A DNA stretch of 64,000 nucleotides from Candidatus Limnocylindrales bacterium (GTDB lineage: Bacteria; Moduliflexota; Moduliflexia; Moduliflexales; JAUQPW01). The notes under the pieces were generated by a model. That model searched no databases, was not told the DNA's origin, and saw only the letters and a list, made by a program, of their open reading frames with translations. A program made the position numbers and the translations under genes. Below, piece by piece: positions 8,473 to 46,407 of the stretch. The number at the start of each line of letters is the position of its first letter. Position 1 is the stretch's first letter. The DNA lies in NCBI GenBank assembly GCA_035559535.1, contig DATMBG010000033.1:61573-125572 (forward strand), read 5' to 3'.

Positions 8473-10161
8473 TTGCTCAAAATTTTGACTACCTGCCGGG
8501 TCTCTTATATCTGGCCGGTCCTTGCGCTTGCGGCTTTTGGCCTACTCCTTCATGAGTATACTTACAAAGATTTTCTCATGGATGATGCCTTTATTTCCTT
8601 TCGTTATGCGGAGAATTTGGTAACCGGGCATGGACTTGTTTTCAATCGAATCGGAGATCCCGTAGAAGGATATACCAATTTTCTTTGGACACTCCTTTTC
8701 GCCGGAGTTCTTTACCTAAAGCTGGATCCGGTCATCACCGCAAAAGTCTTTGGGAGTTTATTGAGTCTCCTGGGATTAGGGCTTACTTATCGAATAGCCC
8801 GTACCATTAATGGAAAAACGGGAGAATGGGAAGGTGGGGAAGTTGGAGAATTTGAGAATCGGAGAGAAGGGGAATCGGAGAAAGGAGGAATAGAAAATCT
8901 ATGGGCAGTTTGGCCTCTTCTCTTTCTTGCTACTTCAGGATCCTTTGCTGCCTGGGCCATGGGAGGTCTGGAGACCCACCTGGTTACGGCTTTGAATCTT
9001 CTGGCTCTACAAAGTTATTTCACGGCCCATTTTCTTACTTCCGCCATCTTTTTTACTCTGGCCTCCCTTACACGCCCTGACGCCATCCTTCTGTGGGGAG
9101 CTGTTTTCTTTATGCACCTGTTTGGCCGGGTGAAGGAGAGAAGGAAAGAAAAGGAGAAGGGAAGAATAACTTCTGATTATCTTTTCCTCCTCCTCCCTTT
9201 GGGAGGATTCAGCCTGTTTTGGATATGGCGCTGGCAGTATTACGGATCCTTGTTTCCCAATACCTTCTACATGAAAACAGGTGGTGGATGGCATCAAATA
9301 CTGGCAGGAGTTTTCTATCTACTGGATTATATCCTCTCCCAGGGTGGATTTTTTCCTTTCCTTCTTTTCTACTTTTTTAAATGGAATTATGACGCCTTTG
9401 ATCATCGGGTTATTCTATCTCAAATAGGCCTTTACACCACCTTTATTATCTTATCTGGAGGGGATTGGATGCCGCTTCATCGGTTCCTGGTTCCCCTGCT
9501 TCCCCTGCTGGCTATCTTAAACACCGCAGCCTTTAAAGGCATTTATAGGAGGCTGATTCTTTTCCTGGAAAAGATGAATCCTCCATCCAAACCGGGAAAT
9601 TGGGAAAATGGAAGAGCGAAACATGATTTATTTTCCTGTTCTTTTACTCCCTCGTCCTCCCGCTCTGCTGCCCTCCTGCTCTTTATCCTGATGGGGTTCT
9701 CCTTGATATTTCCTTTGTTGGAAACTTTAACCGAGCATCCCAGGATAATGGAAGATAGTAAGGGAGTTCAGGCCCTCGTAGAGTTTGGAAAGTGGTTGGG
9801 GAAGCAGGTTTCACCTTTTTCGCTGATAGCCGTTAACCCGGTCGGGGCTATACCCTATTATTCCCGGTTAAACACTTTAGATATGACCGGATTAACCGAT
9901 TCCCATATTGCCCATCTTAAAATGGGAGGTTTACACCAAAAATACGATAGTGCTTATATTCTTAGCTATCATCCTGATTTTATTATTCTGATAGGGCGAT
10001 ATGATCCTGAAACCCGGGTCTACCAGGCTACCTGGGTGGGGGAGGAGGATTTATTTCATAATCCAGAATTTCAGTCTGAGTACCAACCGATCCATCAACC
10101 GGTTTTCAAATATAAAAAGGAGTATAGAATCGTCCTTTTTCAGCGCAAACCCTCGGGGTAG
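8473..10161 (+). CDS. GT-C-type polytopic membrane glycosyltransferase-like protein
   Basis: 562 aa, many TM helices. Acidic first-loop motif 'DDAFISFRYAENL' of the kind used by lipid-linked-sugar glycosyltransferases. TTG start in track; N-terminus uncertain. Carries an octamer-periodic purine-rich insert at 8815-8895. Confidence 0.5.
   Translation: MLKILTTCRVSYIWPVLALAAFGLLLHEYTYKDFLMDDAFISFRYAENLVTGHGLVFNRIGDPVEGYTNFLWTLLFAGVLYLKLDPVITAKVFGSLLSLLGLGLTYRIARTINGKTGEWEGGEVGEFENRREGESEKGGIENLWAVWPLLFLATSGSFAAWAMGGLETHLVTALNLLALQSYFTAHFLTSAIFFTLASLTRPDAILLWGAVFFMHLFGRVKERRKEKEKGRITSDYLFLLLPLGGFSLFWIWRWQYYGSLFPNTFYMKTGGGWHQILAGVFYLLDYILSQGGFFPFLLFYFFKWNYDAFDHRVILSQIGLYTTFIILSGGDWMPLHRFLVPLLPLLAILNTAAFKGIYRRLILFLEKMNPPSKPGNWENGRAKHDLFSCSFTPSSSRSAALLLFILMGFSLIFPLLETLTEHPRIMEDSKGVQALVEFGKWLGKQVSPFSLIAVNPVGAIPYYSRLNTLDMTGLTDSHIAHLKMGGLHQKYDSAYILSYHPDFIILIGRYDPETRVYQATWVGEEDLFHNPEFQSEYQPIHQPVFKYKKEYRIVLFQRKPSG
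8815..8895 (+). repeat. Octamer-periodic purine-rich repeat inside a CDS, translated as a G/E/W-rich loop
   Basis: ggagaatg/ggaaggtg/gggaagtt/ggagaatt/tgagaatc/ggagagaa/ggggaatc/ggagaaag read directly; encodes GEWEGGEVGEFENRREGESEKGG. Confidence 0.6.
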
Positions 10162-10212: not shown

Positions 10213-10240
10213 GTAGGGGCGACCGGCCGGTCGCCCCTAC
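10213..10240. repeat. 28-bp perfect palindrome, REP-like (GTAGGGGCGACCGGCCGGTCGCCCCTAC), between convergent genes
   Basis: Self-complementary 28-mer read directly. Lies between the stop of the GT-C gene (10161, +) and the stop of the glsB-like gene (10284, -). Member of a five-copy family. Confidence 0.85.
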
Positions 10241-10283
10241 AAAAGCTACCCCCTTTTATCCCTTCTGATACGGCTCGTTGATA

Positions 10284-10553
10284 CTAGCGTACCGTACCAC
10301 GCCGGAACATATTAACAATGGCCAGCAGAATAATGGCCCCCAGGAGGGAAACCAGTAATCCCCCCAGACTAAAATTGTTTTGATTGATTGTACCTACCCC
10401 AAATATAGGGGAGAGGAGCAATCCCCCCAGAAAAGCTCCTACAATACCTACCACAATATTAAGGAAAATACCTTGTTGTGCGTCTGTACGCATAATCAGA
10501 CTGGCTATCCAACCAATGAGACCACCCACAATGAGCCAAATAATAAAGTTCAT
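10284..10553 (-). CDS. GlsB/YeaQ/YmgE family small membrane protein (transglycosylase-associated protein family)
   Basis: 89 aa, glycine-rich TM helices 'IIWLIVGGLIGWIASLIM...GIVGAFLGGLL' typical of this family. ATG preceded by GGAGGA Shine-Dalgarno. Confidence 0.8.
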   Translation of the reverse strand: MNFIIWLIVGGLIGWIASLIMRTDAQQGIFLNIVVGIVGAFLGGLLLSPIFGVGTINQNNFSLGGLLVSLLGAIILLAIVNMFRRGTVR

Positions 10554-10995
10554 ACTATCAATTCCTCCATGACTAGTTAATATAGGGTTTGACTTAAACT
10601 CCTGTTTTAACGGCTATTTCACTAAGTGGCAAAAGATATGCCAATCCCGGCTTACAAAGAACAAGGACTCGGATCTTATTACTTAGCCCTCTATACGGGA
10701 CATTATCGGAGTTCTCCAGGGAGATCAAAAAGAACAGGGGGGGTATAAGTTTACCCCGCTTAGGGGAAATCTCTGGAGGAATAGCCAGGTATTTTAAAAC
10801 TAAAAGGTAATCTTATTTTTTAATAAGAACTTATAACCAAAAATTTTAGGAGACAGGTGAATAAAAAAGATTTTTCTTGAAAATAGATTATTTTCTGCTA
10901 TTCTTTTTTTATCTTATGGTTGATAAAGACCCCTATCAGGGATAAGGGAATTTGATCCCGAAGGGCAGACTTTAAATAGCTTTTATTTTAAACAC

Positions 10996-11943
10996 GTGAT
11001 AACCCAAAAATCTGAAGAAAAAGTTCTTTCTATTTCTGCATCGAAGGACTCCCTATGGCAAAGGCTAAGAGCTTACTTTCAACGGGATACGGTGGTTGGT
11101 TATCTTTTTATAAGCCCGGCCTTGCTTCTCCTTTTGACCTTAGTCGCTTATCCCTTCTGTATCGCCCTTTATTTTAGTGTAAGCAATACCATGGTAGGAG
11201 TTCCCGGTTCTTTCGTAGGATTCCGAAATTTTATCAATCTTCTCCACAACGATATTTTCTTACAAACCTTACAAAATTCCTTTATTTTTACCAGTGTTTC
11301 GGTTTTTTTTAAAACCATACTGGGTCTTACGCTGGCCTTATTATTAAACCAACAGCTATGGTTTAAAAAGTTCATTCGGGGCGCTGTTCTCCTTCCTTTT
11401 GTAATTCCAACTGCTTTAAGTACCCTGGGATGGTGGTGGATGTTTGATTCCCTCTATAGTGTGGTGAATTGGACCCTTTATCATCTGGGTTTACTGGGAT
11501 CACCTTCTGAGCTTAACTGGTTAGGCACCCCCCACTTAGCCATGGCAGCCGTGATTATTGTAAATGTATGGAGAGGTTTACCCTTCTTTGCCATCTCTAT
11601 TCTGGCAGGCCTTGTAGCTATTCCAAGGGAGTTGTACGAAGCAGCAGAAACCGATGGAGCGGGCAAAGTGAGTAAGTTTTTCTACATTACCCTTCCTCTC
11701 CTCAGACCGGTCTTAGTCATTGTGGTCCTATTTTCAACCATCTTCACTCTAAGTGATTTTAATATTGTCTATGTGTTAACCCGTGGAGGACCTATCAATT
11801 CCACCCACCTTTTTGCTACCCTTGCAAATCAGGTAGGTCTGGTTTCCGGAAATATTGGAGAAGGAGCAGCGATCTCCCTCTTTTTATTCCCTATTTTGGT
11901 CATAATTGTCTATTTTCAATTAAAAATGATCCGAAAAGAGTAA
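10996..11943 (+). CDS. ABC transporter permease (carbohydrate-type, MalF/UgpA-like)
   Basis: Six-TM permease with the EAA-loop signature 'YEAAETDGAGKVSKFFYITLPLLRP'. GTG start in track; start uncertain. Confidence 0.8.
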   Translation: MITQKSEEKVLSISASKDSLWQRLRAYFQRDTVVGYLFISPALLLLLTLVAYPFCIALYFSVSNTMVGVPGSFVGFRNFINLLHNDIFLQTLQNSFIFTSVSVFFKTILGLTLALLLNQQLWFKKFIRGAVLLPFVIPTALSTLGWWWMFDSLYSVVNWTLYHLGLLGSPSELNWLGTPHLAMAAVIIVNVWRGLPFFAISILAGLVAIPRELYEAAETDGAGKVSKFFYITLPLLRPVLVIVVLFSTIFTLSDFNIVYVLTRGGPINSTHLFATLANQVGLVSGNIGEGAAISLFLFPILVIIVYFQLKMIRKE

Positions 11944-12015
11944 TCTTATCCGTCGCCCCTTGTTAGGGGTTAAGCTTGTAGGTTAACCCGGCTATCTAAC
12001 AACAGACGACGGACG

Positions 12016-12864
12016 ATGAGCCCCAGACAGATGAAATCTTTAAAACAATTTTTCGGGTCTCACTTACCCTTAATTCCCTTTTTAATCTTTGCCCTTTTCC
12101 CTTTTTACTTCATGCTTGTAACCTCTTTTAAGGATGATGGAGAGCTTTACGATCTGAACTCCATTCCATTCTGGATATACAAGGGGGTGGTTTTGAGCCA
12201 TTATCGATTTCTTTTAGCCGAGACTCCCTTCTTAACCTGGATCAGTAACAGTCTAACGGCCAGTGTACTGAGTACTATTATCTCGGTTATTATCAGCATC
12301 CTAGCTGCTTACAGCCTGGCCAGATTAAATTTTCGGGGAGCCCATAGTTTTGGGATTGCTATTTTTATTACCTACCTGGTTCCTCCGGCTCTATTATTTC
12401 TCCCACTCTCTCAGGTCGTTCATAAACTGGGACTCTCCGATTCCATCTGGGCCCTGATACTCACCTATCCCACCTTTCTGGTTCCCTTTTGTACCTGGTT
12501 ACTTTTAGGGTATTTTAAAACCGTTCCTCGGGAAATAGAGGAATGTGCCATGGTAGACGGAGCAACCCGGTTCCAAACTTTGACAAAAATAGTTTTACCG
12601 GTAGCCACGCCGGGGATTATCTGCGCCACCCTGTTCTCGTTTACCCTTTCCTGGAATGAATTTTTGTATGCCCTTACCTTTATCTCTTCCACCGCCCAGA
12701 AAACGGCTACTGTGGGGATTACAGGAGATCTCATCCGGGGAGATATTTACTACTGGGGGTCTTTGATGGCCGGAGCCGTACTGGGCTCGGTACCTATTGT
12801 AATTGCCTATGTATTCTTCCTGGATTATTACGTCTCGGGCTTGACAGCAGGTGCCATTAAGTGA
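12016..12864 (+). CDS. ABC transporter permease (carbohydrate-type, MalG/UgpE-like)
   Basis: ATG start. EAA-loop region 'EECAMVDGATRFQTLTKIVLPVATPG'. Second permease of the pair. Confidence 0.8.
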   Translation: MSPRQMKSLKQFFGSHLPLIPFLIFALFPFYFMLVTSFKDDGELYDLNSIPFWIYKGVVLSHYRFLLAETPFLTWISNSLTASVLSTIISVIISILAAYSLARLNFRGAHSFGIAIFITYLVPPALLFLPLSQVVHKLGLSDSIWALILTYPTFLVPFCTWLLLGYFKTVPREIEECAMVDGATRFQTLTKIVLPVATPGIICATLFSFTLSWNEFLYALTFISSTAQKTATVGITGDLIRGDIYYWGSLMAGAVLGSVPIVIAYVFFLDYYVSGLTAGAIK

Positions 12865-12876
12865 TATTAAGTAGTA

Positions 12877-12941
12877 AGTACTGAGTGCTGAGTCCTGAGT
12901 GCTGAGTAAATACTAAAACCCAGTGTTCAGCACTCAGTACT
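12877..12941 (+). terminator. Long stem-loop (15-bp perfect arms) immediately after the permease operon
   Basis: Arms AGTACTGAGTGCTGA (12877-12891) and TCAGCACTCAGTACT (12927-12941), followed by a T-rich tract (ttattattg). Sits between the permease stop (12864) and the hslO start (12955). Confidence 0.45.
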
Positions 12942-12954
12942 TATTATTGAAAAT

Positions 12955-13833
12955 ATGCCAGATACACTTGTAAGAGCCATCGGAGCTTATGCGAATATTC
13001 GCTGTATAGCTGCTGTCACTACTGATCTAGTGGAAGAAGCGCGTGCCCGGCATGATACCTATCCTACTGCAACGGTAGCTTTGGGAAGGGCTCTGACCGG
13101 AGGAATTCTCCTGGGTGGTCTATTGCAGGGGGAGGAGCGAATTAACCTTCAGATCAATGGAAGAGGGCCTCTTCGTAGTATTGTCGTGGATGCTGATGCC
13201 TTTGGCCACGTTCGGGGTTTTGTCCGCCACCCCCATATCCAGGTCCCCCTCCGTGAAGGAAAAATTAGCGTAAAAGAAGCCATCGGTGCAGGGACCCTTC
13301 AAGTTTTAAAAATCCAGGCCAATCAGAAAGAACCTTATCGAGGGATTATACCTTTAGTTTCTGGAGAAATCGCTAAAGACTTGACTTCTTACCTGGTTAA
13401 CTCCGAACAAATTCCCTCGGCGGTTGCCTTAGGCGTTTATATCGAGGGTAATAACCGGGTAACCGCTTCGGGAGGATTTATCGTCCAGGCACTGCCAGGA
13501 GCTCAAGATAAAGATATTTCCATTGTGGAAGAGAATATCTCGGCACTTCCCCCTTGTAGCGAGATGATCTTAAACGGAATGGGCCCCCGGGATATCATTA
13601 TGCAGGTCATGAACGGGATTATGATTAAATTCCTGGAGGAAAAAGAAATTTCCTTCCAGTGCCGTTGTAGTAAAGAGCGGGTCGTTCGGATTATGATTGC
13701 CCTGGGAGCCGCAGAAATTCGGGATATCCTGGCAAAGGAGGGAGAAGCGAAAGCCCTCTGCGAGTTTTGTAAGAGAGATTATGTGGTTACCGGAGATGAG
13801 CTCAGACAACTTTTGGAAGAAATTGAATCGTAG
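12955..13833 (+). CDS. hslO: Redox-regulated chaperone Hsp33
   Basis: Hsp33 N-terminal domain and the C-terminal zinc-binding redox switch CxC...CxxC ('CRCSKE...CEFCKRDY'). Confidence 0.85.
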   Translation: MPDTLVRAIGAYANIRCIAAVTTDLVEEARARHDTYPTATVALGRALTGGILLGGLLQGEERINLQINGRGPLRSIVVDADAFGHVRGFVRHPHIQVPLREGKISVKEAIGAGTLQVLKIQANQKEPYRGIIPLVSGEIAKDLTSYLVNSEQIPSAVALGVYIEGNNRVTASGGFIVQALPGAQDKDISIVEENISALPPCSEMILNGMGPRDIIMQVMNGIMIKFLEEKEISFQCRCSKERVVRIMIALGAAEIRDILAKEGEAKALCEFCKRDYVVTGDELRQLLEEIES

Positions 13834-13880
13834 AGCGAAACGTGGTTTCGCCCTACGATCTAAGTTTTTACCCATAGACT

Positions 13881-14260
13881 TTAATATCTCCTATACTGCT
13901 CCTGCATCCTTAGGTCAAAAGCCTTATGTCTGGGATTTTTCTTAAATCCTCGATATTCCGCCTGGCAAGTATAACAAACGGTCATCCACGGAGAAAAGTA
14001 ATAAATGATAGCATCCAGAAGGGTGATTCCCATCAAAATTAAAAGACCCAGCAGGCTGCTACTATAATAGCTGCTTAAAATAATCCCTATAAAAACTATT
14101 ACAGCCCCCAGTTTCCGATTGAACGCCTTCCGAATATAAAATTTATCCCGCCCACATAGAGCACAAGAATCGACAATCCCGGTAGATAAGGATTCAGAAA
14201 CCCGTATAGGAATCTCTTTCAAGCATTTAGGGCAAACCAGATTGGATATGCTTTGAGAAA
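13881..14260 (-). CDS. Small zinc-ribbon / membrane protein (hypothetical)
   Basis: Cys pairs CPKC...CALC then two TM helices and C-terminal CYTC. The track ORF extends to 14330 but would translate through the REP-like palindrome at 14275-14302, so the true start is probably downstream of the palindrome (exact codon not determined). Confidence 0.4.
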
Positions 14261-14274
14261 GAGGTACGGTCAAG

Positions 14275-14302
14275 GTAGGGGCGTACGGCCGTACGCCCGT
14301 AC
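14275..14302. repeat. 28-bp REP-like palindrome (GTAGGGGCGTACGGCCGTACGCCCGTAC)
   Basis: Read directly; lies 25 bp 3' of the stop of the 14327-15175 (-) gene. Confidence 0.85.
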
Positions 14303-14326
14303 AGAATTTACAGGGAAAAGTAATTT

Positions 14327-15175
14327 TCATACCGGTATTTTGGTTACAAACAAAAGAAATCTTGCCAGGAGTTCTCCGGCCAGAACGAAGAGCATGGTCA
14401 CGTACAACATGCCGGTTGCAGATTGGGTTGAGCGAATTTTGACTGTTTCCCAGATCATATAACTACAAGCTAATGGAGCCAAAAGTCCAAAGAGGAGTCG
14501 AAACCAGAAAAAGACCCCGTAACCCTTCAAATTTAAGAGAATCTCTAGGAGCTGACGACCCGTTTCTCCTTCGGTCCAATAAAGCCCCAAGGTTAAAAGA
14601 ATTAAAACAAGTCGGAGGATCAGGGAACCGATAAACAGAAGAGAAAGTGATCTTAAAGGATCAATGGAGAGATCTGGAGTCACCAAATACCAGTGACCCA
14701 GAACCATGGCAAAACTGGCTGAGCCCAGCAGAAGGGCAGAGGTTAGAAAATTCCCCGGGAAGAGGAGATTTTCCCACCATAAACCTAACCCCAACTGATT
14801 ACGATAAACCATTGCCAGACAGATCAAGACCAGGATACCTGCCAGAACTGAAGCTCCCAATAGTTTCCGGCTCAAAGAGGGCCGTTCGGGAGTCAGGACA
14901 AAGAAACAAAGTAAAACGAGAAGGGTGTAAACCACCAAGAGAAGAAGAGTCCTTCCCGTCCAGTTGGTAAAAAGAATCGCTCCATATCCAGAAAGAAGTT
15001 CTTGCCAGGTTACAAGGGGATAGGACCAGAGAAAGAAAGCTATCCCCAACAAAAATAAGCTGGTTAGGCTGGTAAATCTAAAATATCCCCTCCCGGTTTC
15101 ATGGAGAGGAACAGCCAACAACGTTATCATGCTACCGATAGAAAGCTGAGTAAGAAGCAAAAAAATGAGAATCAT
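14327..15175 (-). CDS. Hypothetical polytopic integral membrane protein
   Basis: 282 aa, ATG start, about 8 hydrophobic helices, no identifiable catalytic motif. Confidence 0.5.
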   Translation of the reverse strand: MILIFLLLTQLSIGSMITLLAVPLHETGRGYFRFTSLTSLFLLGIAFFLWSYPLVTWQELLSGYGAILFTNWTGRTLLLLVVYTLLVLLCFFVLTPERPSLSRKLLGASVLAGILVLICLAMVYRNQLGLGLWWENLLFPGNFLTSALLLGSASFAMVLGHWYLVTPDLSIDPLRSLSLLFIGSLILRLVLILLTLGLYWTEGETGRQLLEILLNLKGYGVFFWFRLLFGLLAPLACSYMIWETVKIRSTQSATGMLYVTMLFVLAGELLARFLLFVTKIPV

Positions 15176-15590
15176 GCTGGATAGTTTAATCGAATAAAAC
15201 CTGCCCTGACAAGACCTTTTTTTATTACTTCCCTTTTACGCCTTCCTTCCTTATTTGTTGGATTCCGAAACAAAAAATTTTTTTCTTAAAAGACAGGGTT
15301 TTTTCATCCTTCCGATTCCTGAATCAAGTATGCCAACTTTATTTCTCCAAATTATGAATAAACTGTAAGTTATAAAAATTTATTTTTCTTTATAAAAAAT
15401 TTCATTTTTTTTGTAGACAAAAAAAAGGGTTTATGTATTTACTGTCAAAGGTCTGAAAATCCTGTATTATTTGACTTTTTAAAGCTCTTATCGGGTAAAT
15501 TGAAAAATAGTGGAGGTAAATTTTGATGGATTTATGTAGAGGGGCAAGAGGAGGGAGCTGGTTTAGGATTTAAACTTGAAAGGAGGTAAG

Positions 15591-16703
15591 ATGTATCCAT
15601 TAACGATAGATAAATCTATCTGGCTTCAGATTCTCTCTTTCTGTAGATATAGGAGAATCTCAGTCCTGGTTCTCTCACTGGGAATTATGGGTTGTGCTTC
15701 GGTTAGACCCCTGAATCAGGGAGATGGGACCCTGGCTCGATCTACGGAAAGAGAGAAAGACTTAGAGACATTAAATACCTCTCCGACCTCGCTTCCAGGT
15801 AACTCTTATCTTTCCATATCCAAGCCTTCTGAGTATGAACTCTTTCTGAGATTTAATCCCTCTGATCAGGAGAAACTTACCCAGGAAGAGGAACTCACTG
15901 AAATCTGGGAATCCGGATTAAGTCCAGATACCCTTAAATTCCTGGAAGCTTCGATGCAGGTTGATTCTTCGGAAATTCTTTCTACCCAGGCCCAACCCTT
16001 TCATCTTTACAGAATGAACCCTAACCCTTCGGCTTTCTCTGTAGTTAGTCATCCTATCTATCCATCCCCCTCTCCCAGGATACCTATTCGCCCTACGCCC
16101 TTCATCTCGGAGGACAGTGAATCGGCCCTGCAGGTATCCCCCTTCTTCGTCCCCCCTGTGGATAATGCTTATATTATCCGCGGACTTAATCCAAGATGTT
16201 GGTACGGTCGAGGACATTGTGGAGTAGATATGGCTACGGCCAAAGGAAAAGGGGATAATGTACGGGCTGTGGAAGATGGTATCGTGTTAGATGCGGGAGT
16301 TCGAAAACGCTATGGCTACTATGCCATCGTCTTACATAAAGGAGGTATTGCCTCCTTGTATTCCCATACTTTAAAAGATCCTGATCTAAAACCCTGTCAG
16401 CAAGTAAAGAAACAGGAGGTGATTGCAAAAGTTGGAGAAAGTGGTAATGCCAGATCGCCTCATCTTCATTTTGAGATGATCGATCTGGATAAAGGATGGC
16501 AAGGAAAAACAGACCTGAATAGTTTCATAGCTCAGATTTGTAATAGCCACAAAAACAAAATAGCTGCTATCCGAGAGAATCTTGAAGGACTTCTATTCCG
16601 AAAAGATCTCAAAATAGATCCTCTGGAGTATATTCCCAATATCGCCAAAAACCCCTCCAGATTCCGAATAGGATCTCCCAGGATGCATGCCAAGGGGAGA
16701 TAG
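15591..16703 (+). CDS. M23-family metallopeptidase, probable lipoprotein
   Basis: ATG at 15591 preceded by AGGAGG. Lipobox-like 'LSLGIMGCAS'. M23 motifs 'HCGVDMA' and 'ESGNARSPHLHFE'. Confidence 0.75.
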   Translation: MYPLTIDKSIWLQILSFCRYRRISVLVLSLGIMGCASVRPLNQGDGTLARSTEREKDLETLNTSPTSLPGNSYLSISKPSEYELFLRFNPSDQEKLTQEEELTEIWESGLSPDTLKFLEASMQVDSSEILSTQAQPFHLYRMNPNPSAFSVVSHPIYPSPSPRIPIRPTPFISEDSESALQVSPFFVPPVDNAYIIRGLNPRCWYGRGHCGVDMATAKGKGDNVRAVEDGIVLDAGVRKRYGYYAIVLHKGGIASLYSHTLKDPDLKPCQQVKKQEVIAKVGESGNARSPHLHFEMIDLDKGWQGKTDLNSFIAQICNSHKNKIAAIRENLEGLLFRKDLKIDPLEYIPNIAKNPSRFRIGSPRMHAKGR

Positions 16704-16740
16704 AACCTATTCTTCTGGCAGAAGAGTGGACATGTGGAAC

Positions 16741-16768
16741 GTAGGGGCGTACGGCCGTACGCCCCTAC
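16741..16768. repeat. 28-bp REP-like palindrome (GTAGGGGCGTACGGCCGTACGCCCCTAC) between convergent genes
   Basis: Perfect palindrome read directly, between the M23 gene stop (16703, +) and the cca stop (16791, -). Confidence 0.85.
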
Positions 16769-16790
16769 TCCCTTTTTATTTATCCTGCAT

Positions 16791-18074
16791 TTAAGCCTTT
16801 TCTTCTCTAGGGTAGGTCTGTTTGACCAACTCTAGAGCCTCTTCACGCGTGGAGATTCTTCCTTCTAATTGAGCTTCTTCTACAAAGTTCAAGATTTCGC
16901 GAAAGATCGGACCTGGAACATATCCCATGGCAATGAGATCTTCCCCCCGTAATAAAGGGGGTGGGTTTAAAGCTTCTTTCCCTAAAAGAGCCAATTGGTC
17001 CTTACAAAATTCCCAATTTTCCAAACTTCTTTTACTTGAAATACTGTCCAGTCTGTGCAACTCCAGAAGATCCTGAAAATGTTCCCCTCGTAAAAAACGT
17101 TTGAGAGTACTCGGTCTCATGTTTTTTACATTCAGAAACTTGAGATGATCCCGGACCAACTGAAAGATTGTATCTTTCTCTTTATTTGAGAACTTCAATC
17201 TCTGGCAAATTTCCAGAGCAAGCTTCGCCCCAACCTCTGCATGACCATGAAATCGAATTCGGTCTTTGATTTTAAAAGTCACAGGTTTACCCACATCATG
17301 AAGAAGCACCCCCATAGCTAGCTCAGGAGTTGGATTTTGAAGATTTTCTAGCATCTTTAACGTGTGGGTCCAAACATCCCCTTCGGGATGAAATTCAGGA
17401 GGTTGAGGGACTCCCTTCATCCGTGAAACTTCGGGAAGAATATGGACCAGTAAGCCACTGTCTTGAAGAAGTTGAATCCCCATTGCCGCATTCCCTTCGG
17501 TCAGGATTTTTACCAGTTCATCCCGAATCCTCTCAGGACTTACCTCCTTGATTTTATAAGCAAGTTTTTGAACGGCGCAGAAGGTTTTTTCTTCGATCTG
17601 ATACCGATAGCGAGCCGCTAGTCGTACACTTCGTATCATACGTAGTTTATCTTCTTCGAATCGATCTTGAGGATCTCCAATAGCCCGAATAAGCTTCATC
17701 TGTATATCTTTTAAGCCGCCCACATAATCTATTACACGCTGTTCCCTTAAATCATACAACAGTCCGTTGATGGTAAAATCACGCCTTAACACATCTTCCT
17801 CTGCGTTTTTCCCCCGGAAGGTAGCGACCTCATAACTTTCATGGTTTAGAAGAACCTTCACAACACCAAACTGGGCCCCCACGGAAACTGTCCGTTTAAA
17901 TAACTGCATGATCTGCTCAGGAGTTGCAGTGGTAGCAACATCGTAGTCCTTAGGCTTAAGCCCCAGGATAAGATCTCTTACGCACCCCCCGGCCAGATAG
18001 GCTACAAAACCAGCGTCTGTCAGTTTTTTTACAATGAATTGGACGTGATCGGGTATCTCCATAAAGATCTTCAT
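16791..18074 (-). CDS. cca: CCA-adding tRNA nucleotidyltransferase with HD domain
   Basis: Pol-beta nucleotidyltransferase motif 'GGCVRDLILGLKPKDYDVATTATPEQ' and an HD-domain region 'HDVGK...FHGHAEVGA'. Start taken at the MKIFMEIP ATG; the ORF extends to 18110. Confidence 0.8.
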   Translation of the reverse strand: MKIFMEIPDHVQFIVKKLTDAGFVAYLAGGCVRDLILGLKPKDYDVATTATPEQIMQLFKRTVSVGAQFGVVKVLLNHESYEVATFRGKNAEEDVLRRDFTINGLLYDLREQRVIDYVGGLKDIQMKLIRAIGDPQDRFEEDKLRMIRSVRLAARYRYQIEEKTFCAVQKLAYKIKEVSPERIRDELVKILTEGNAAMGIQLLQDSGLLVHILPEVSRMKGVPQPPEFHPEGDVWTHTLKMLENLQNPTPELAMGVLLHDVGKPVTFKIKDRIRFHGHAEVGAKLALEICQRLKFSNKEKDTIFQLVRDHLKFLNVKNMRPSTLKRFLRGEHFQDLLELHRLDSISSKRSLENWEFCKDQLALLGKEALNPPPLLRGEDLIAMGYVPGPIFREILNFVEEAQLEGRISTREEALELVKQTYPREEKA

Positions 18075-18250
18075 ACTCTCAGGCAAAGTTATAAGCCGGT
18101 TTATTGTCAAAACATAGGTCTATTAAAACCCACAAAAAATCTTGACAATTTAATAATAATATTGCACTTCTGTAAGTATAAAAGATGTTTGTTAGACCTT
18201 CTTAATTTACACCCAAAATACTTTGCTTGAAAGCCTGGAGAGCATCACCT

Positions 18251-19624
18251 ATGAGAAGAGTATTAAAGTCCTCAGTTTTGAGTTTAGTACTGTGGGTAAT
18301 TTGTCTCTCTCTCTTTGTTAAAGTCCTAGAAGTAGAAGGTGCAGAAACACTCACCGTAACCAAAGAGGCGGAACTAAAATCTGCTCCACAAGCTGGAAGT
18401 AAACCAAAAACTGTTATTTTACGTAATACCAAGGTTGAATGGACGGGTAATCGAAAAGGTCCCTGGCTTGAAGTGAGATTACCCAGCGGCTTACAGGGAT
18501 GGATTCAGGAGAATTCGGTCTCGACTCCTAAATCTGTCATCCCGTCGACTCCGGCCAGAACACAACCCCCTCCAGAATCTGTAACCCCCTCTGACATTGA
18601 GGCCCCTAAACAACCGACTCCTGTAGACAACTTAGAGGAGTTAAAGAAAAAATACGAAGCGGAATTGGATCAATTTAAGCAGCTTTTACTTGAACGGCAA
18701 AATGAAATAAAAGCTAAAGATACCGAATTAAAATCCAAGGATGATACGATAGCTCAATTAAACCAGGAAATAGAAGCCCTTAAAACCCAACTTACCCGGT
18801 CTAATGAAGCAGGAAAAGGGGTTCAAGGAACCCTGGAGGAGGCTCAAAACAAGATAAAAGATTTGGAAAATCAATTATCCCAGATTCAAAAAACCTTATC
18901 CGATAAAACTAAAGAGGTTGAGACTTTATCGGCTCAAAATGCAAGTTTAAAACAACAGATAGCCGAAGGAGCATCCGGATCCAGTTGGTCTCTTTATTTA
19001 ATCCCTATTCTTTTGGGTCTCTTGATCGGACTGGCTGTTTACACTTTTCGATATCGTGTTCCCCGAGAAGCCATCCCAAAATCTGGAGCTCCATTCCAGG
19101 AGTTTGAAGGCCAGACCGAAAAAATAAAACCTTCTCTTACTCCAGATAAAATTCAGGGTCCAATGGATCAAAGTTCCTGGAAAGAGCTGGCTCAGACGAC
19201 AGGTGCTTTAGAAAAAGAGGAGCCGGCTAAAACTGTAAAGGGAGAAGTCGCCCCAACCTCTTACGAGAAAGAGGATCCCCGTACCCGGCGGATTCCATCT
19301 GAACCGGAGCCCAAAGCAGAACCTGTGCTCACCCGGGGTGGTGCAACCCAGAGTTTAAGCCCCTCTGATTCAGAAACAGAAGAACCTCAAGCCTTATCTG
19401 GAGAGCGATTCGATATACGTCTTACTAAAGTGGGTGATAGAAAAGATAAAGTGCTTCAAATGCTCTTTAAAGTTAAAGGTCTTGTTCGAAGCCCTGAAGA
19501 GTTGATCAATTCGGTGCCCTGTACCATTGCCAGAAACGTTGAAAAGTTCAATGCGGAGAAATTCCGCCACTACATGAACCGGGTTGGAGCGACCATCGAG
19601 CTGGTTAAATCGGAAGAAGAGTAA
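18251..19624 (+). CDS. Membrane-anchored protein: signal/SH3b domain, long coiled coil, TM helix, and C-terminal ribosomal L7/L12 C-terminal-domain-like module
   Basis: ATG at 18251 (MRRVLKSSVLSL...). SH3b-like 'VEWTGNRKGPWLEVRLPSGLQGWIQE'. Heptad-rich coiled coil (aa about 130-240). TM 'YLIPILLGLLIGLAVY'. C-terminal 'RFDIRLTKVGDRKDKVLQMLFKVKGLVRSPEELINSVPCTIARNVEKFNAEKFRHYMNRVGATIELV' aligns by eye to the L7/L12 C-terminal domain. Confidence 0.6.
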   Translation: MRRVLKSSVLSLVLWVICLSLFVKVLEVEGAETLTVTKEAELKSAPQAGSKPKTVILRNTKVEWTGNRKGPWLEVRLPSGLQGWIQENSVSTPKSVIPSTPARTQPPPESVTPSDIEAPKQPTPVDNLEELKKKYEAELDQFKQLLLERQNEIKAKDTELKSKDDTIAQLNQEIEALKTQLTRSNEAGKGVQGTLEEAQNKIKDLENQLSQIQKTLSDKTKEVETLSAQNASLKQQIAEGASGSSWSLYLIPILLGLLIGLAVYTFRYRVPREAIPKSGAPFQEFEGQTEKIKPSLTPDKIQGPMDQSSWKELAQTTGALEKEEPAKTVKGEVAPTSYEKEDPRTRRIPSEPEPKAEPVLTRGGATQSLSPSDSETEEPQALSGERFDIRLTKVGDRKDKVLQMLFKVKGLVRSPEELINSVPCTIARNVEKFNAEKFRHYMNRVGATIELVKSEEE

Positions 19625-19629
19625 AGGTC

Positions 19630-20100
19630 TTATTGGGATAACCTCTTCAACCAATAAGATACCCTGGGGTCTTTTCCGCCTAATCGAAGATAAATATCAT
19701 AGTGATTTTTGGCCAGCGTTGCATTCTTAAGATTTTTATCGTATAAAACTCCTAGTTTATAGTGAGCTTCCATAAGATTCGGATCAATTTGAATGGCCTT
19801 TTCATAATTTTCTGCAGCAAGTTGATAATTACCTTGATGCACCTCTAAATCACCCAAACGCAAATAAGCGGTGGCATTCTTAGGATCTATCTGGATCGCC
19901 TCCAGGTAGTAAGTTCGGGCTTGATCTTTATCCGTTATGTAGAGTAGATCTCCTTGCTTAACCAGATCTCGAGATTTATCTCCATTGGCCGGAAGGATCC
20001 TGATTTCTGAAGTAGAGGAGCCAGGTGGTTCCAGCTTGCGTTTGACCTTGATTTTGTCTTCCCCGGTAATAACAATTTCCGGAAGCTTCAAACCCGGAGG
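19630..20100 (-). CDS. TPR-repeat protein
   Basis: Three or more TPR units ('AYLRLGDLEVHQGNYQLAAENYEKAIQIDPN', 'AHYKLGVLYDKNLKNATLAKNHYDIYLRL'). The track ORF runs to 20310 but its N-terminal part would translate through two REP-like palindromes, so the start is uncertain and 20100 is approximate. Confidence 0.5.
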   Translation of the reverse strand, partial: PPGLKLPEIVITGEDKIKVKRKLEPPGSSTSEIRILPANGDKSRDLVKQGDLLYITDKDQARTYYLEAIQIDPKNATAYLRLGDLEVHQGNYQLAAENYEKAIQIDPNLMEAHYKLGVLYDKNLKNATLAKNHYDIYLRLGGKDPRVSYWLKRLSQ

Positions 20101-20126
20101 TGCAGCAGGCTCAGCGGCAGAACTAA

Positions 20127-20154
20127 GTACGGGCACACGGCCGTGTGCCCCTAC
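20127..20154. repeat. 28-bp REP-like palindrome (GTACGGGCACACGGCCGTGTGCCCCTAC)
   Basis: Read directly; arms carry compensatory changes relative to other copies. Confidence 0.85.
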
Positions 20155-20264
20155 TCCAAGAAAAGAAAGCAAAATTAAAATAAAGGCGACAATCTGGCTT
20201 GATTGAAGGAACTTAAAGCCAGCCCTCCAATCGACGTAAGGTTTATTTTCAGAGATTAATCTTG

Positions 20265-20292
20265 GTACGGGCACACGGCCGTGTGCCCGTAC
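20265..20292. repeat. 28-bp REP-like palindrome (GTACGGGCACACGGCCGTGTGCCCGTAC)
   Basis: Read directly; 15 bp 3' of the stop of the 20307-22154 (-) gene. Confidence 0.85.
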
Positions 20293-20306
20293 TTGTTTTA
20301 GTCCGT

Positions 20307-22154
20307 TCATTTACTCCTCCATACCTCAAAGATCCTCTCCAGACCAGCCCCTCCAAACAGAGTATTTGAGATGGTTAAGGTAGTCCCTCTGGGATCTTTG
20401 AGGGTATATTCATCGTAGAAACGACCTTTTTTAACAGAAATTTCAGTATCCGGACCAAATTCGAGGGAATGCCTGTAAGTAACTCCCTGAAGTTGAGCAG
20501 TAGCAACGGCCAGCAGCCGTCGGGTTGTTACAACAATCCAGAAATAGGCATCCCGTGCACGGGTTTTATCTACATTCCTGAACCGAAACCGGGTAGAAGT
20601 TTCCCGGATGGCCAGAATCCCCTCCGTTGGATCTAATTCCCTAAAAATATATCGGAGAATTTCAAAGGGAGGGGTCGAGATCAGATCGTGCTTGGGAAGT
20701 TTGGCTTTCAATTTATCGATTAGGTGCTTTTCTCCTTCTTTTTTCATACCCAGAAGGTCGCAAAGATTATAATAATAAGCCTCATCTTCCTTTGTAAAGG
20801 GTATCTGCCAAAGTAAAACATCCAGTACTTCCAGGAGGGCCTGCTGTTTAAAGATGGGTACATCTAAAACTTTAACCAATTCCTTGAGGTCTGTGGGACG
20901 TTCCCGCTCGACCAAAATATCTGCAAACTCTGCTTCTGAGAAAGGGACCAAAGGATATGCCAAAGCCCGAGCCCAGATATACTCCTTTAAAGATTCTGAC
21001 CATTTGTTACACGCTGTGGCTGCCTGAACCATCAGTTTCAAGATGGCAGCTTCCCGTTTCTTGTTAATTTGCTGAACACTTACCACATCCAACTCTCCAG
21101 AGGGCAACGCTTTTTTCTCTAATTCATTTCGATATTTTGAAGAAACGCCCAACCGTTCTTCCAGATTACGCAGCCGCTCCATTTTTTTTGTAAGATTCAT
21201 CTCATCGGCTTGCGCAACTTTCTCTACCTGTCTGAGGAGTCGGGCTTTATCTCCTTTCTCAGAAACAACGGTTAAATCATAAGAGGCCGGCTTCTTAGCC
21301 AACAGGGAACGTAAAAGGCTTACTTTTAGTGAATCGTTCAATTCGGTATTCTTTAGAATGTAGGCCAAGAGGGTCTCGTACTCCTGGGAAGTCACCAAAC
21401 CATCCGCTACCGCCATGTTAATCATTTCACCTGCAATGCTATACTCGATGATAGCAGACTTAGGTTTTACCCCCCTTCGACTATAAAGCAGGATGGCTTC
21501 TTCCCCTACAACGGTCATGATCATGGATAAAAAATAACGAACAATGCTTTCCTGACTAACCGTGATAAGGACCTGTCGTCCCCAGTACCAAGGATTAGAA
21601 TAGTTGTAGGCGGCCCATAGGGCCTTCCCAATATCATAAAGATATTTATGCTTTTTGAAAAATTTAAAAGCGCTATGGCTGGTAACTTGATTGTAAAAGT
21701 TTTTATATTTGAGAATATTCTCGATATTGAAATCTTTGATTTTATTAAACGGAAAGGTCTCCAGATTCGCCCGAATACGTTCGCTGATCCGATAATTAAG
21801 TTCTGCAAGATCATGAAGAGAAGCTTGAAACTCGGGTCGATCTTTCAGGGGATAATAGAGCCTGGCAATCTCTCGAACAAGTTCATAGGCAAGTTGATAA
21901 ATCATGCGTGGATTAATGTCCGTACTCACAACCACATTCCACCAAATCTTGCTTCGATACTCTTTAATTAACTCATAAGCCTTGAGATCGGTCTCGGTTG
22001 GATTATCTACTTGGATGATAGGTACTTCTTGAAGTTCTTCTACATCTTTCTTTACCTCTTCAATAATCTGTTTTTTTTGCTTTTCGCGTACAAAGAGTAA
22101 AACGAACACAAGAAGGCTTAATAAGCTTATGAGAAAAATGGTTACCCAATCCAT
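20307..22154 (-). CDS. Hypothetical membrane-anchored protein (single N-terminal TM, large soluble domain)
   Basis: 615 aa, ATG start, N-terminal TM 'IFLISLLSLLVFVLLF'. No recognised motif. Immediately downstream of the large GT-C/TPR gene on the same strand. Confidence 0.55.
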   Translation of the reverse strand: MDWVTIFLISLLSLLVFVLLFVREKQKKQIIEEVKKDVEELQEVPIIQVDNPTETDLKAYELIKEYRSKIWWNVVVSTDINPRMIYQLAYELVREIARLYYPLKDRPEFQASLHDLAELNYRISERIRANLETFPFNKIKDFNIENILKYKNFYNQVTSHSAFKFFKKHKYLYDIGKALWAAYNYSNPWYWGRQVLITVSQESIVRYFLSMIMTVVGEEAILLYSRRGVKPKSAIIEYSIAGEMINMAVADGLVTSQEYETLLAYILKNTELNDSLKVSLLRSLLAKKPASYDLTVVSEKGDKARLLRQVEKVAQADEMNLTKKMERLRNLEERLGVSSKYRNELEKKALPSGELDVVSVQQINKKREAAILKLMVQAATACNKWSESLKEYIWARALAYPLVPFSEAEFADILVERERPTDLKELVKVLDVPIFKQQALLEVLDVLLWQIPFTKEDEAYYYNLCDLLGMKKEGEKHLIDKLKAKLPKHDLISTPPFEILRYIFRELDPTEGILAIRETSTRFRFRNVDKTRARDAYFWIVVTTRRLLAVATAQLQGVTYRHSLEFGPDTEISVKKGRFYDEYTLKDPRGTTLTISNTLFGGAGLERIFEVWRSK

Positions 22155-22163
22155 TCCTGGGAG

Positions 22164-22225
22164 CCAGGAGTCCGGGGTCAGGGGTCAGAAACCAGAAGCT
22201 CTGGCCTCTGACCCCGGACTCCTGG
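22164..22225 (-). promoter_or_regulatory. Long GC-rich stem-loop (18-bp perfect arms) between two co-directional genes, abutting the downstream start codon
   Basis: Arms CCAGGAGTCCGGGGTCAG (22164-22181) and CTGACCCCGGACTCCTGG (22208-22225). Lies after the stop of the 22241-25735 gene and ends 9 nt before the ATG at 22154. Confidence 0.4.
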
Positions 22226-22240
22226 CTTCTGACTGAGGAC

Positions 22241-25200
22241 TCATTTCTGTATTTCTATTTCTCCAATTTTCATCTTCTCTTGACCTCCAGCTTTGAGTCT
22301 TCGGCCGGTATTTTTAGGATCCCACACACCTATCCAGATTTCATAAGTTCCAGGTACCAGATAAGGAGGAATCTGAACCTGATACCGTTCTTTGACCACT
22401 TCTCCAGGAAGCCAGGTATCCGTGGGGTGTAAGTTTTGAAGAGGGAAGTGATCCTGCTGGAAGAAGTCTACAAGGGATATTCCCAGCTTTTGTTTAACTT
22501 TACGGATCAGATCAGAAGAAATGAACTTCTTCTTTGAAAAGTGAACAAAAATCGCATAATTCTTATCCATTTTAGCCAAGGCCTTCCAGTAATAGGTAAT
22601 GGGAAAGGTCTCGGAAGGTCTAAATTGGTTCTTAGGTAAGTCATATCCTATAAAAGCCAGTTGATTATCAAAATTGATCTGAACAGGGATCTGAGGTTGA
22701 AGTAATTCCCGGATCTGGATGAAATATTTATAAAGAGGAACCTCTTGTGGGATAGGCTCATGTTTTACTTCCTCATAAAGAGAAGAAAGCGACAGTGTAG
22801 ATTCAAAATCTTCTCCTACTCTGCCGGAATCCTGTAAAGATAGAATTTCTCGCCCGACTTCATGTTGTAAAACCTTTAGAGCTTCTTCCCATTCTTTTAA
22901 TTTAACCCAACCTAAGATCATATAATAAGAGAGATGGGGGTAAGTGGGATCTAATGCAAATAAAGGTGAAAGTTGGGTCAGGGCCTGCTCCCAGTTCCCC
23001 TCCTTTGCATAAGAAACTCCCATCAGGTAAGGGATTTGAAAGGGAAGTAAGGGATAAACATCAATTTTATCTACCAGAAGGGTTCCTATGCCCGATGTTT
23101 CTACTCGAAATTCCAAAGAAGAGGTCTCTGGGTTTACGAAACTGAGACTAAAGTTTTGATAGGTATCGGAAGCGGTAAAATCCTCTCTAAGCAGGGAGCG
23201 CCGCCCCAGGATTCCATATCGGCCACTTCGAACATCTAACATGGCAAGTAAAGGGGTTGCCGGAACTGCTTCTGAAGGGGGTAGATGATCTTTGATCTTG
23301 AGTCTATATCTAACCTGATAGGCTCCGGCCGGAAAATCTTGAAAAGGTCCATACGTTAAAAAACCTTTACCCGTAGAGATGGTTGAAGTTTTTAAAATCT
23401 CAAAGGATTGGATATCGGACTGGCTGTTTGGAACATCTGAAGTAGTTAGAATCGCGGAGTTTATCGATTCCCCCGAGATGGGAGTATCCGGTCTGGATGA
23501 AACCGCTCGACCACCGGAAGCTTCTGAATCCAGAACCACCCCTCCGGTAGTCCTTCGGAGATTCTCGGCTTCAAAACTCTGAATTAATAAACTCTGAAGA
23601 AACTTTAGCGAGGAATCGGAGGTAAGAGCGGCGCCATCTACTTCTTCTCCTCCACTTTTCCCTATAGACCTGTTAAAGTTTGCTACGTAAGTTGGAATGA
23701 GTTTCTTTGCTTTTTCCAGTACGATCCGGGACCTGGTAAACCGGCCTACCTGTTGATAGGCCTCACTAAGGGCGATATACAGAGCTAAATTTTCCGGTTC
23801 CTGCTCCACAGCCTGTTCCAGATAGAAAAGAGCTTTGTCGGTATTTCCGTTTTTTTGATAAGCCAGGCCTATTTTACCTGGATTCAAAGAAATCTGGACC
23901 AGACATCCCAAATAGCGGGTATCATCCTTGACCTTATCCAGCGAAAACAGGTAAGGAAGTCTTTCGGTAGGATTTGCATAGGCGAATCGAGGGATAAAAC
24001 CCGAGTAAGAGGTTATGTTAATGGGATAAAGATAGGCCTTGAAAAACGGAAAAGCTGTTTTTAACGGGAAAATAATCTCTTTCCTTTCATCCCCCTCTAA
24101 GTGGAAAGTACGCCGTACACCGGCTACTTCCAGGTCAACCGTATTTTGAAAAGGTCCATTCTCCAGGATAACCAGCAAATCGTCTTGCTTTTCATTCACC
24201 TTTAACACCGCTTCCAGCTTTGCTTCACCACGTACCCAGAAATTTTTACTGCTACGCCCCATATAGTTATCGTTCAGAAGATAAAGATCATAGGAAGGGC
24301 TATCCCCGGAGAAGTTTTGAATCATATGACGATTGGTATTGATGGGGAGAGAATTAATTTCTGTCAACTCTACAGGGAGTATTCGATAAGGGAATCGGAA
24401 GGCATGTTGCGCAGGATTATTGGAACTATAAAAGGGATTAATGAGAATTTGAGCTAAAAATAAAAAACCCACCAGCCAGGTTATCAAGATGGTTCCAAAC
24501 CCCCCTGGAATTTGGGTTGTCAAAAAGAGAAAAGCCGGATAGATATTTAAGAAAAATCGATTTCCGATCGCTCCACTCCCTCCATGATAGTTAGAGGGGG
24601 CCCACAGGATGTAGATGAGAATGTGGATAACGATGGTTCCAAGCAGGACAAATCGCAAAGAGGAACGCGGGTTTAATAGAAAACAGAAAAGCGCAACTAA
24701 AGCCGGAAAATAGTAAGGGAAAATCCCGGTGAACCGTCCAAATAGATAATAAAATAAATTATATAAAAAGACTTTAGGATTAAAATAAAAGGATTCTTCA
24801 AAATAAACATCATGGGTTTGTTTAGTCCCTAGATTATCAAATCCAGCTCCGGCTGACTCCAGGGGGAAATGCCAGTAAAAAGTTTTACGATCTCCGGCAT
24901 AGGCATTCCATTGACTCATGAACAGAAATTGAATCCCCGAAAGAATTCCCAGAATCAGTAGAAAAACAAGACCAACGCTTAAAACATATTTGTACCGCTG
25001 CCAAAAATAGTGGATTCTGGCTACAAATCCCTTCTTGGAAGTCAGATAAATTTCGCTTCGCGGTAAGATAACACTGGTTAAGAGGGGTAAAATAAAGATT
25101 CCATTGTGGGGTTTGGAAAAAGTTGCAAGACCTATCAAAAGAGCACTCAAGTATTTTCTACCTGGAGTTTTTCCAAAGGCCTGACCATAGTTTGCTAGAG

Positions 25201-44562: not shown

Positions 44563-44674
44563 CCCTCACCCCTAACCCCCTCTCCCGAAGCTTCGGGAGA
44601 GGGGTTGAGAAGTTGACCTGGAGATTTGTCGGCTCCCTTCTCCCACGCTGTGGGAGAGGGGCCGGAGGTGAGGG
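44563..44674. repeat. Nested palindromic element: two tandem 26-27-bp hairpin units enclosed by an outer 8-bp inverted repeat
   Basis: Unit 1 CCCTCTCCCGAAGCTTCGGGAGAGGG (44578-44603). Unit 2 CCCTTCTCCCACGCTGTGGGAGAGGGG (44635-44661). Outer arms CCCTCACC (44563-44570) / GGTGAGGG (44667-44674). Confidence 0.6.
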
Positions 44675-46344: not shown

Positions 46345-46407
46345 CAACCTATGAACCTGGAGCAATGGACCATGACCTGGGTCATGGTCCATTGTCTATA
46401 GCAGAGT

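Follow-up and report, generated by a model that had tools for sequence, protein, structure and literature searches.

In the REP-REPIN-RAYT systems of Escherichia coli and Pseudomonas (RAYT groups 2 and 3), repetitive extragenic palindromes (REPs) are hairpins with a GTAG-type foot whose partner is a single-copy Y1-HUH enzyme, the REP-associated tyrosine transposase (RAYT, also TnpA_REP); these REPs are largely extragenic, have a species-specific sequence, are often paired as REPINs (REP doublets forming hairpins) or BIMEs (bacterial interspersed mosaic elements), and flank the RAYT gene. Rickettsia palindromic elements (RPEs), reportedly described by Ogata in 2000, are said to be small palindromes of ~100-150 bp that are inserted in frame in protein genes and tolerated there, and cyanobacterial small dispersed repeats (SDRs), reportedly described by Elhai in 2008, are said to be 21-27-nt mobile elements with mirrored stem changes. 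To our knowledge, RPEs have no known enzyme, SDRs have been described only in a cyanobacterial subgroup and with no enzyme link, and neither has GTAG...CTAC feet. Among the RAYTs, TnpA_REP subclass 2.4 (group 4 in the RAYT classification of Bertels et al.) carries the signature NH[IFV]H, WQ and YIxNNP in ~194 aa. Some of its REP families are of the “double foot” type, with GT[AG]G at the 5' end and C[TC]AC at the 3' end; in-frame REP insertions in tnpA_REP are stated for this subclass, and the motif by which RAYTs recognise their REPs is published as the GTAG foot (Quentin et al. 2018, BMC Genomics 19:475; PMC6006769). In the GTAG superfamily, sub-families differ by complementary stem changes, intragenic REPs can be read in frame, GTAG can supply TAG stops, the REPs lie preferentially between convergent or co-directional genes, and in other bacteria REPs have an influence on 3' ends (Di Nocera et al. 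2013, BMC Genomics 14:522; PMC3733652). The mechanism of REP dissemination is stated as unresolved (PMC8266576). Here, we analyse five copies of a 28-bp palindrome in a 64,000-nt stretch of a Candidatus Limnocylindrales bacterium (contig DATMBG010000033.1, positions 61,573 to 125,572; hereafter the window). The copies probably belong to a described kind, the double-foot GTAG-type REPs, i.e., 28-nt non-autonomous hairpins that elsewhere are partners of subclass 2.4 RAYT/TnpA_REP Y1-HUH enzymes.

The window was searched with the consensus of an earlier note on this DNA after correction of position 20 to Y, as the note had read C/G where the copies have C/T, the complement of G/A. The pattern, GTASGGGCRNNCGGCCGNNYGCCCSTAC, matched with 0 mismatches at all five positions listed in the note (10213, 14275, 16741, 20127 and 20265), and 100 dinucleotide-preserving shuffles used as control gave no match (0/100). 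Scans with the motif and for hairpins bounded by GTA./.TAC revealed no further copies, and no half-copies with a partner, in the other 54 kb of the window, and at gathering thresholds no Rfam family matched anywhere in the window. Each strand of the element reads 5'-GTA(G/C), a G+C-rich stem, a GGCC loop, the complementary stem and (G/C)TAC-3', with GGGC/GCCC directly after each foot as in double-foot REPs. Folded as single-stranded DNA, the copies form a 12-bp stem with a 4-nt GGCC loop (-8.7 to -14.2 kcal/mol, z -2.2 to -4.9). Perfect palindromes, which the note had claimed for every copy, are found in three (10213, 16741 and 20265), whereas at positions 4/25 G stands opposite G in copy 14275 and C opposite C in copy 20127. 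Likewise, the claim that all arm changes are mirrored fails at positions 4/25 and holds at the inner variable positions 9-11/18-20, in 5/5 window copies and across the copies from other genomes described below. The same variant is shared by neighbours, 14275 with 16741 and 20127 with 20265, and the five copies lie within 10.1 kb of the 64 kb (rough chance estimate ~0.003).

To place the element in a wider context, we scanned one genome per species with the exact pattern GTASGGGC-NNN-CGGCCG-NNN-GCCCSTAC, for which less than one chance match is expected by our own estimate, assuming uniform base composition. The same 28-mer occurs in at least 120 stretches from many phyla; the 120 loci referred to hereafter are those listed. 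Hosts include Anaerolineae, Dehalococcoidia and Chloroflexia (Chloroflexota), several cyanobacterial genera including cultured strains, Deltaproteobacteria, Nitrospirae, Planctomycetota including Scalindua, Latescibacterota, Binatia, Gemmatimonadota, Omnitrophota and Patescibacteria, and the 28-mer is also present in long-read chromosomes. Because flanks are not conserved and are unrelated between loci, the unit is 28 bp long with sharp edges. Three variants dominate, namely GCGACC...GGTCGC (44 copies; the variant of copy 10213 and the commonest across phyla), GCGCAC...GTGCGC (29) and GCGAAC...GTTCGC (19). The six positions that the pattern leaves free (9-11 and 18-20) are complementary in ~96% of copies: of 143 copies, 137 have a Watson-Crick pair at 9/20, 136 at 10/19 and 141 at 11/18, with three to four pair types at each, and several of the exceptions are G-T, including 5/6 at pair 9/20. 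Positions 4 and 25 are G or C, each independent of the other, and ~93% of the feet are GTAG and ~7% GTAC. Relatives of the element, built as GTAGGGGC-12 nt-GCCCCTAC but with a different interior, almost always measure 28 bp too. Long stop-free spans hold 37% of the 94 testable copies versus 76% of random positions, arguing that the element is depleted from genes yet not excluded from them. Compared with the published description of subclass 2.4, these data further show that many phyla have a single 28-mer in common, nearly unchanged and in only three main variants. A 20-22-nt core string gave no match in a full-text literature search, and GTAGGGGC is absent from the text supplements of Di Nocera 2013 (PMC3733652), the consensus figure of that paper not being covered. 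The motif is found in just 18 stretches of viral contigs, and a phage vector is therefore not indicated. One REP variant is found at apparently the same site in two cyanobacterial genera (L033 5117, Dapis; L117 889, Planktothrix), where TCTA/AGAT prolongs the palindrome and conservation reaches into the right flank (AGATGGyGTATAAT...).

The partner enzyme was sought among the neighbours of the palindrome. All-against-all clustering of 3476 open reading frames (ORFs) from the 120 loci yielded only one cluster in which every member overlaps the palindrome, the Y1_Tnp/REP-associated tyrosine transposase family (L016, L023, L054 and L096, hosted by Anaerolineaceae, Syntrophaceae, an unclassified metagenome-assembled genome and Chloroflexi, respectively). 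A RAYT fragment lies beside the palindrome copy of L107, and no other neighbour recurs in the 120 loci, larger clusters being kilobases away and looking like common families. Three of the four proteins score above the Pfam Y1_Tnp cut-off of 23 bits (28.9, 26.1 and 23.2), the fourth reaching 17.6, and all fall under the 80-bit equivalog cut-off of NCBIfam REP_Tyr_transpos (62-65 bits, E ~5e-17). They share the motifs YDYSxxGAYFVT, PNH[IL]HGIV, VWQRNYYE and YIxNNP. The 28-mer is in frame within the four genes, just past the HUH motif; three tandem copies are found in L096, the TAG of the element forms the stop codon of the RAYT gene in L016, and degenerate copies flank the RAYT genes.

A profile of the four RAYT proteins found at least 8000 homologues, among them some whose sources use the name RayT. 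The best 120 of these have NH[ILFVM]H, WQ (120/120) and YIxxNP with a median length of 202 aa, and 92 of them contain VGAxGRxPL, which is the 28-mer read in frame 1; 86/95 such peptides fall in the interval from HUH to WQ. Three peptide variants predominate, H/A, N/S and T/S, and they correspond to the three main DNA variants. In one homologue with VGAYGRTPL (L225-L227), the DNA inside the RAYT gene is the exact sequence of window copy 16741 (GCGTAC variant). Consistent with subclass 2.4 and its double-foot REPs, the element shows a patchy spread across phyla that include Cyanobacteria and Chloroflexi, and the enzymes have the corresponding motifs and a similar length (202 versus 194 aa). The tag, the short stem-loop, the complementary stem changes, placement between convergent genes, in-frame copies inside genes and a TAG stop, as at 13830 (see below), are shared with the GTAG superfamily (PMC3733652), whereas the tag is unpaired at one end in that survey and present and paired at both ends here. 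Unlike the E. coli and Pseudomonas REPs, the copies are single 28-bp units, often in genes and inside the RAYT gene, with a sequence common across phyla. By analogy with the family, the Y1-HUH enzyme would bind the hairpin folded in single-stranded DNA, cut at the feet and rejoin the hairpin elsewhere. The suggestion of the earlier note that the palindromes are REP-like is supported by the GTAG foot and the G+C-rich stem, by dispersal with sharp 28-bp edges and by the tie to RAYT-type Y1 genes elsewhere; the RAYT that it advised looking for is found in other genomes, with the same 28-mer inside the gene, and is missing from the window and from the loci of its relatives.

The history of the five copies can be read from relatives whose contigs were reached through homologues of the 149-aa protein encoded by one of the host genes (ORF 13881-14330). 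Contigs L202-L205 (~92% nucleotide identity) are syntenic with window 3823-24270, and L206 is 82-87% identical across aligned blocks. A metagenome scan with the CCA-adding enzyme gave relatives at 50-56% identity only, of no use for empty sites. The lineage is poorly represented: relatives of the conserved 739-aa acyl-CoA synthetase stand at 93, 86, 71, 69 and 61% identity, with the next at ≤42%. None of the five copies is present in L202-L205 or L206. All five were gained after the split from the ~92%-identical relatives, in two intergenic spacers and at three coding positions. At the site of copy 14275, which reads G(T/C)AATAAGTCTTAC in L202-L205 and in the outgroup L206, the empty state is ancestral, as the outgroup and three ~57%-identical proteins agree; in place of the TGVRPYAPT of the window, five homologues of the host protein have K-T/A-Y/L plus one residue, the closest relative reading KTYY.

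Four junctions are readable (Table 1). In these, 4-14 nt of target are replaced, with no target duplication and no consistent microhomology, and the reading frame is kept in 3/3 coding insertions, such frame-keeping events being the only ones seen in genes. ATAAG/ATAAAAG is present in 3/4 replaced segments; as this was seen post hoc with n=4, we do not claim it as a target motif. The site of copy 16741 is rearranged. At about the same place, L202 (7551-7578; also L203-L205) has a different element of the double-foot type that is likewise 28 bp long (GTAAGGGCGACGCATGGGTCGCCCTTAC, given for the window strand); its feet are GTAA and its loop is not palindromic. In this spacer the relatives also have ~100 nt of extra sequence, rich in short CTTCC repeats, which is missing from the window. 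One REP seems to have been exchanged for another here, in a direction that no outgroup polarises. The before-and-after junctions with target replacement add to what has been published, and they and the clustering within 10 kb are the points of most value: together with the relatives that lack the copies, the window provides five dated insertion events, three of them in coding sequence, and a genome-wide comparison of these metagenome lineages would yield a junction catalogue for a RAYT subclass that is biochemically unstudied.

The location of the copies differs from that given in the earlier note. Its statement that two copies lie between convergent genes is correct (10213 and 16741), but its view that none lies inside a confirmed coding region is contradicted by copy 14275 in one host gene and copies 20127 and 20265 in another; homologues of both proteins lack the insert. 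Homologues of the first protein are 144-146 aa long and 57-89% identical (BLASTP), with synteny and the same start in relatives, and the orthologue of the second in relatives has 213 aa and the same start. Starts called in the relatives, and in a separately assembled version of this sequence, coincide with those used here; at copy 20265, Logan assembly L121, made independently, agrees in both sequence and gene call. As to the note's distance of 15-25 bp past a stop, copies 14275 (24 nt) and 20265 (14 nt) are so placed because they are among the opening codons of a downstream gene whose translation is coupled to that of the gene before it. Since 3/5 copies are in-frame coding insertions, the placement claim is unsupported. 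The three insertions are evidently tolerated by the two proteins. The note had counted copies in frame within conserved proteins against a REP, and this situation is found in part, for the three coding copies; it is no valid refutation, because intragenic GTAG REPs are documented (PMC3733652, PMC6006769). A practical corollary for annotation is that VGAxGRxPL or RGxRPxAPT in predicted proteins from Chloroflexota, Cyanobacteria and many uncultured phyla marks translated REP copies.

Table 1. REP copies, related element and host genes in the window, with the change at each readable insertion site relative to the relatives.
Feature	Coordinates	Strand	Sequence and structure	Setting	Junction
REP copy 1	10213..10240	.	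GTAGGGGCGACCGGCCGGTCGCCCCTAC; perfect palindrome; hairpin -14.2 kcal/mol	between convergent ORFs 8473-10161(+) and 10284-10553(-)	intergenic; ~14 nt CCGGTTGAATACCT in relatives -> TTT, 28-mer, A; net +18
REP copy 2	14275..14302	-	GTAGGGGCGTACGGCCGTACGCCCGTAC; G/G mismatch at 4/25	in frame as TGVRPYAPT between two CxxC knuckles of ORF 13881-14330(-)	coding; older sequence GTAATAAGTCTTAC -> 28-mer plus one extra flank base; net +15
REP copy 3	16741..16768	.	GTAGGGGCGTACGGCCGTACGCCCCTAC; perfect palindrome	between convergent M23 peptidase ORF 15576-16703(+) and CCA-adding enzyme ORF 16791-18110(-)	
REP copy 4	20127..20154	-	GTACGGGCACACGGCCGTGTGCCCCTAC; C/C mismatch at 4/25	in frame as VGAHGRVPVL right after predicted membrane helix of ORF 19630-20310(-)	coding; exactly 7 nt CTTTTAT in relatives -> 28-mer; net +21; IKV -> VGAHGRVPVL
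REP copy 5	20265..20292	-	GTACGGGCACACGGCCGTGTGCCCGTAC; perfect palindrome; GTAC feet	in frame as VRAHGRVPV, codons 7-15 of ORF 19630-20310(-)	coding; 8 nt ATAAGAAG in relatives -> G plus 28-mer; net +21
Older related double-foot element	13830..13856	.	GTAGAGCGAAACGTGGTTTCGCCCTAC; 27 nt; one A/C stem mismatch	between convergent genes	
Host gene 1	13881..14330	-	149-aa zinc-ribbon/membrane protein	contains copy 14275; start overlaps stop of ORF 14327-15175(-) in ATGA	
Host gene 2	19630..20310	-	226-aa tetratricopeptide-repeat (TPR) protein	contains copies 20127 and 20265; ATGA overlap with ORF 20307-22154(-); GGAGG upstream of ATG	

Several points weigh against the assignment to double-foot REPs of subclass 2.4. 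Neither the 64-kb window nor ~20 kb of each relative contains a RAYT (tblastn, and a hidden Markov model of the 120 homologues with no hit at E ≤ 10), unlike in subclass 2.4 descriptions; a RAYT enzyme in this genome is therefore assumed, and membership rests on the element and on the other genomes. The query profile itself included the REP peptide, which tilts the ranking of the homologues towards peptide carriers. Six of the ten window feet are GTAG and four are GTAC, an enrichment over the proportion elsewhere and a sequence outside the published GT[AG]G. As regards REPs in the classical sense, extragenic location does not hold for the three coding copies, although intragenic REPs are documented in this superfamily, and in terms of copy number the 64 kb hold five copies plus one older relative. 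Group 4 RAYTs, common in Cyanobacteria, Chlorobia and Caldilineae, are credited with modest flanking-repeat counts (Bertels et al. 2017). Finally, the IS200/IS605 model, with clean insertion beside a fixed target tetra- or pentanucleotide and without target loss, disagrees with the four junctions and does not predict replaced target bases. Target replacement, the clustering of five events and the GTAC enrichment (4/10 versus ~7% elsewhere) are thus the observations for which the assignment does not account.

In a possible, and at present rather doubtful, extension, the REPs may spread by a cut-and-swap process in which the enzyme, or the ensuing repair, removes a short, often AT-rich or mini-palindromic target that the 28-nt hairpin replaces, new copies arising preferentially within a few kb of the donor. 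We propose it because neighbours share variants, one REP was apparently exchanged for another at 16741, and five events fall in 10 kb. If it were true, the before-and-after pairs would be a natural record of the REP dissemination step. Among viral contigs with the motif, L207 (3458) and L220 (4072-4824)/L214 are 96-97% identical and differ by a ~750-bp indel that ends exactly at the REP; the segment encodes a secreted-looking protein, and on its opposite side the REP has a smaller indel next to it. Sequence beside REP edges would accordingly tend to be deleted, so that the loss of target bases in the window could be a secondary event after insertion.

The junctions in the window also speak for a tiny element that moves or is captured without any RAYT, either via an RNA intermediate, as proposed for cyanobacterial SDRs, or as a hairpin oligonucleotide ligated at DNA breaks in end-joining repair, at the cost of a few target bases. 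Messy ends, with 4-14 nt lost, no duplication and no consistent microhomology, would be expected of such an element; the window has no RAYT, and the viral 750-bp indel abuts one side of a REP between near-identical contigs. We nevertheless regard this as unlikely, since the 28-mer is embedded in RAYT genes at 4 of the 120 loci listed and its peptide in 92 of the best 120 homologues, no other gene family recurs beside it, and its GTAG foot is the published RAYT motif (PMC6006769).

Selection on the host's own hairpins, acting as intrinsic terminators or RNA-stabilising 3' hairpins of upstream genes, a role that placement past stop codons had suggested, is quite improbable as the origin of the copies, although copy 16741 is followed on the plus strand by the T-rich tract TCCCTTTTTATTTAT and scores terminator-like, the older element at 13830 scores terminator-like on the minus strand and is kept in three lineages, and REPs are known to influence 3' ends elsewhere (PMC3733652). 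Relatives with the same genes in the same order lack all five copies, three copies are coding, copy 10213 has no T tract on either strand, and no Rfam family matches; moreover, an identical sequence in many phyla beside unrelated neighbours is unlike a locally evolved signal. Should the hairpins affect expression at all, for instance by terminating transcription or stabilising RNA at 16741 or 13830, that role would be a secondary one. Still less credible is a site for a dimeric protein or for recombination, i.e., a palindromic operator or a dif-type tyrosine-recombinase core. Its 11-6-11 layout, exactly 28 bp with 11-bp arms around CGGCCG, and the length kept in subfamilies with other interiors would suit such a site; however, Xer/dif has a single site per replicon, whereas 10 kb here hold five copies, of which three are intragenic, the neighbourhoods of the 120 loci listed show no recurrent recombinase or regulator, the G-T exceptions fit a folded single strand and not duplex recognition, and the sites are missing from close relatives. 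An assembly or library artefact inserted into contigs can practically be dismissed: two Logan contigs of run SRR7882662, L228 (window 10214-16770) and L121 (16743-29631), do end inside copies 10213 and 16741, but the same copies occur in independent assemblies, the frame is kept in 3/3 coding copies, the motif is found in cultured cyanobacteria and long-read chromosomes, and copies vary with mirrored changes. L228 and L121 overlap by the 28-mer only, the assembler having broken there, and assembler breaks at REP copies are hints of further copies or of coverage drop-outs at hairpins. A CRISPR array, a miniature inverted-repeat transposable element (terminal inverted repeats plus target duplication) and an integron attC site were ruled out, as there is no regular spacing, duplication or flank conservation.

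A related double-foot element at 13830, missed in the earlier note, emerged when hairpins with GTA./.TAC boundaries were sought. The stop codon of the Hsp33-family ORF 12955-13833(+) (Pfam HSP33 on the orthologue) is the TAG within the GTAG of this element, the hairpin of which folds at -7.4 kcal/mol (z -5.0). The element is at the same site in L202 and L206, arguing that it predates the split of the three lineages, all of which have the identical A/C mismatch. Because this mismatch has stayed unrepaired, mirrored changes are no proof of selection site by site; the earlier note had taken them to indicate selection on secondary structure or dimeric protein binding. The symmetry of the young copies may instead stem from the source copy, from recency or from the copying process.

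Other inverted repeats were seen in the window, the G+C content of which is ~43-45%. At 12864-12954, in the spacer between ORFs 12016-12864 and 12955-13833, there is a 37-nt imperfect inverted repeat with heptamer-like units (AGTACTG AGTGCTG AGTCCTG). Between ORFs 20307-22154(-) and 22241-25735(-), positions 22162-22234 hold a 28-35-nt inverted repeat, AGCCAGGAGTCCGGGGTCAGGGGTCAGA/TCTGGCCTCTGACCCCGGACTCCTGGCT, with 28-nt arms that are 93% complementary. Two further structures are strong and unrelated to the REP family, a 38-bp near-perfect palindrome at 44572-44609 (CTAACCCCCTCTCCCGAAG/CTTCGGGAGAGGGGTTGAG) and a perfect 15-nt inverted repeat at 46363-46394, just past ORF 44995-46344.

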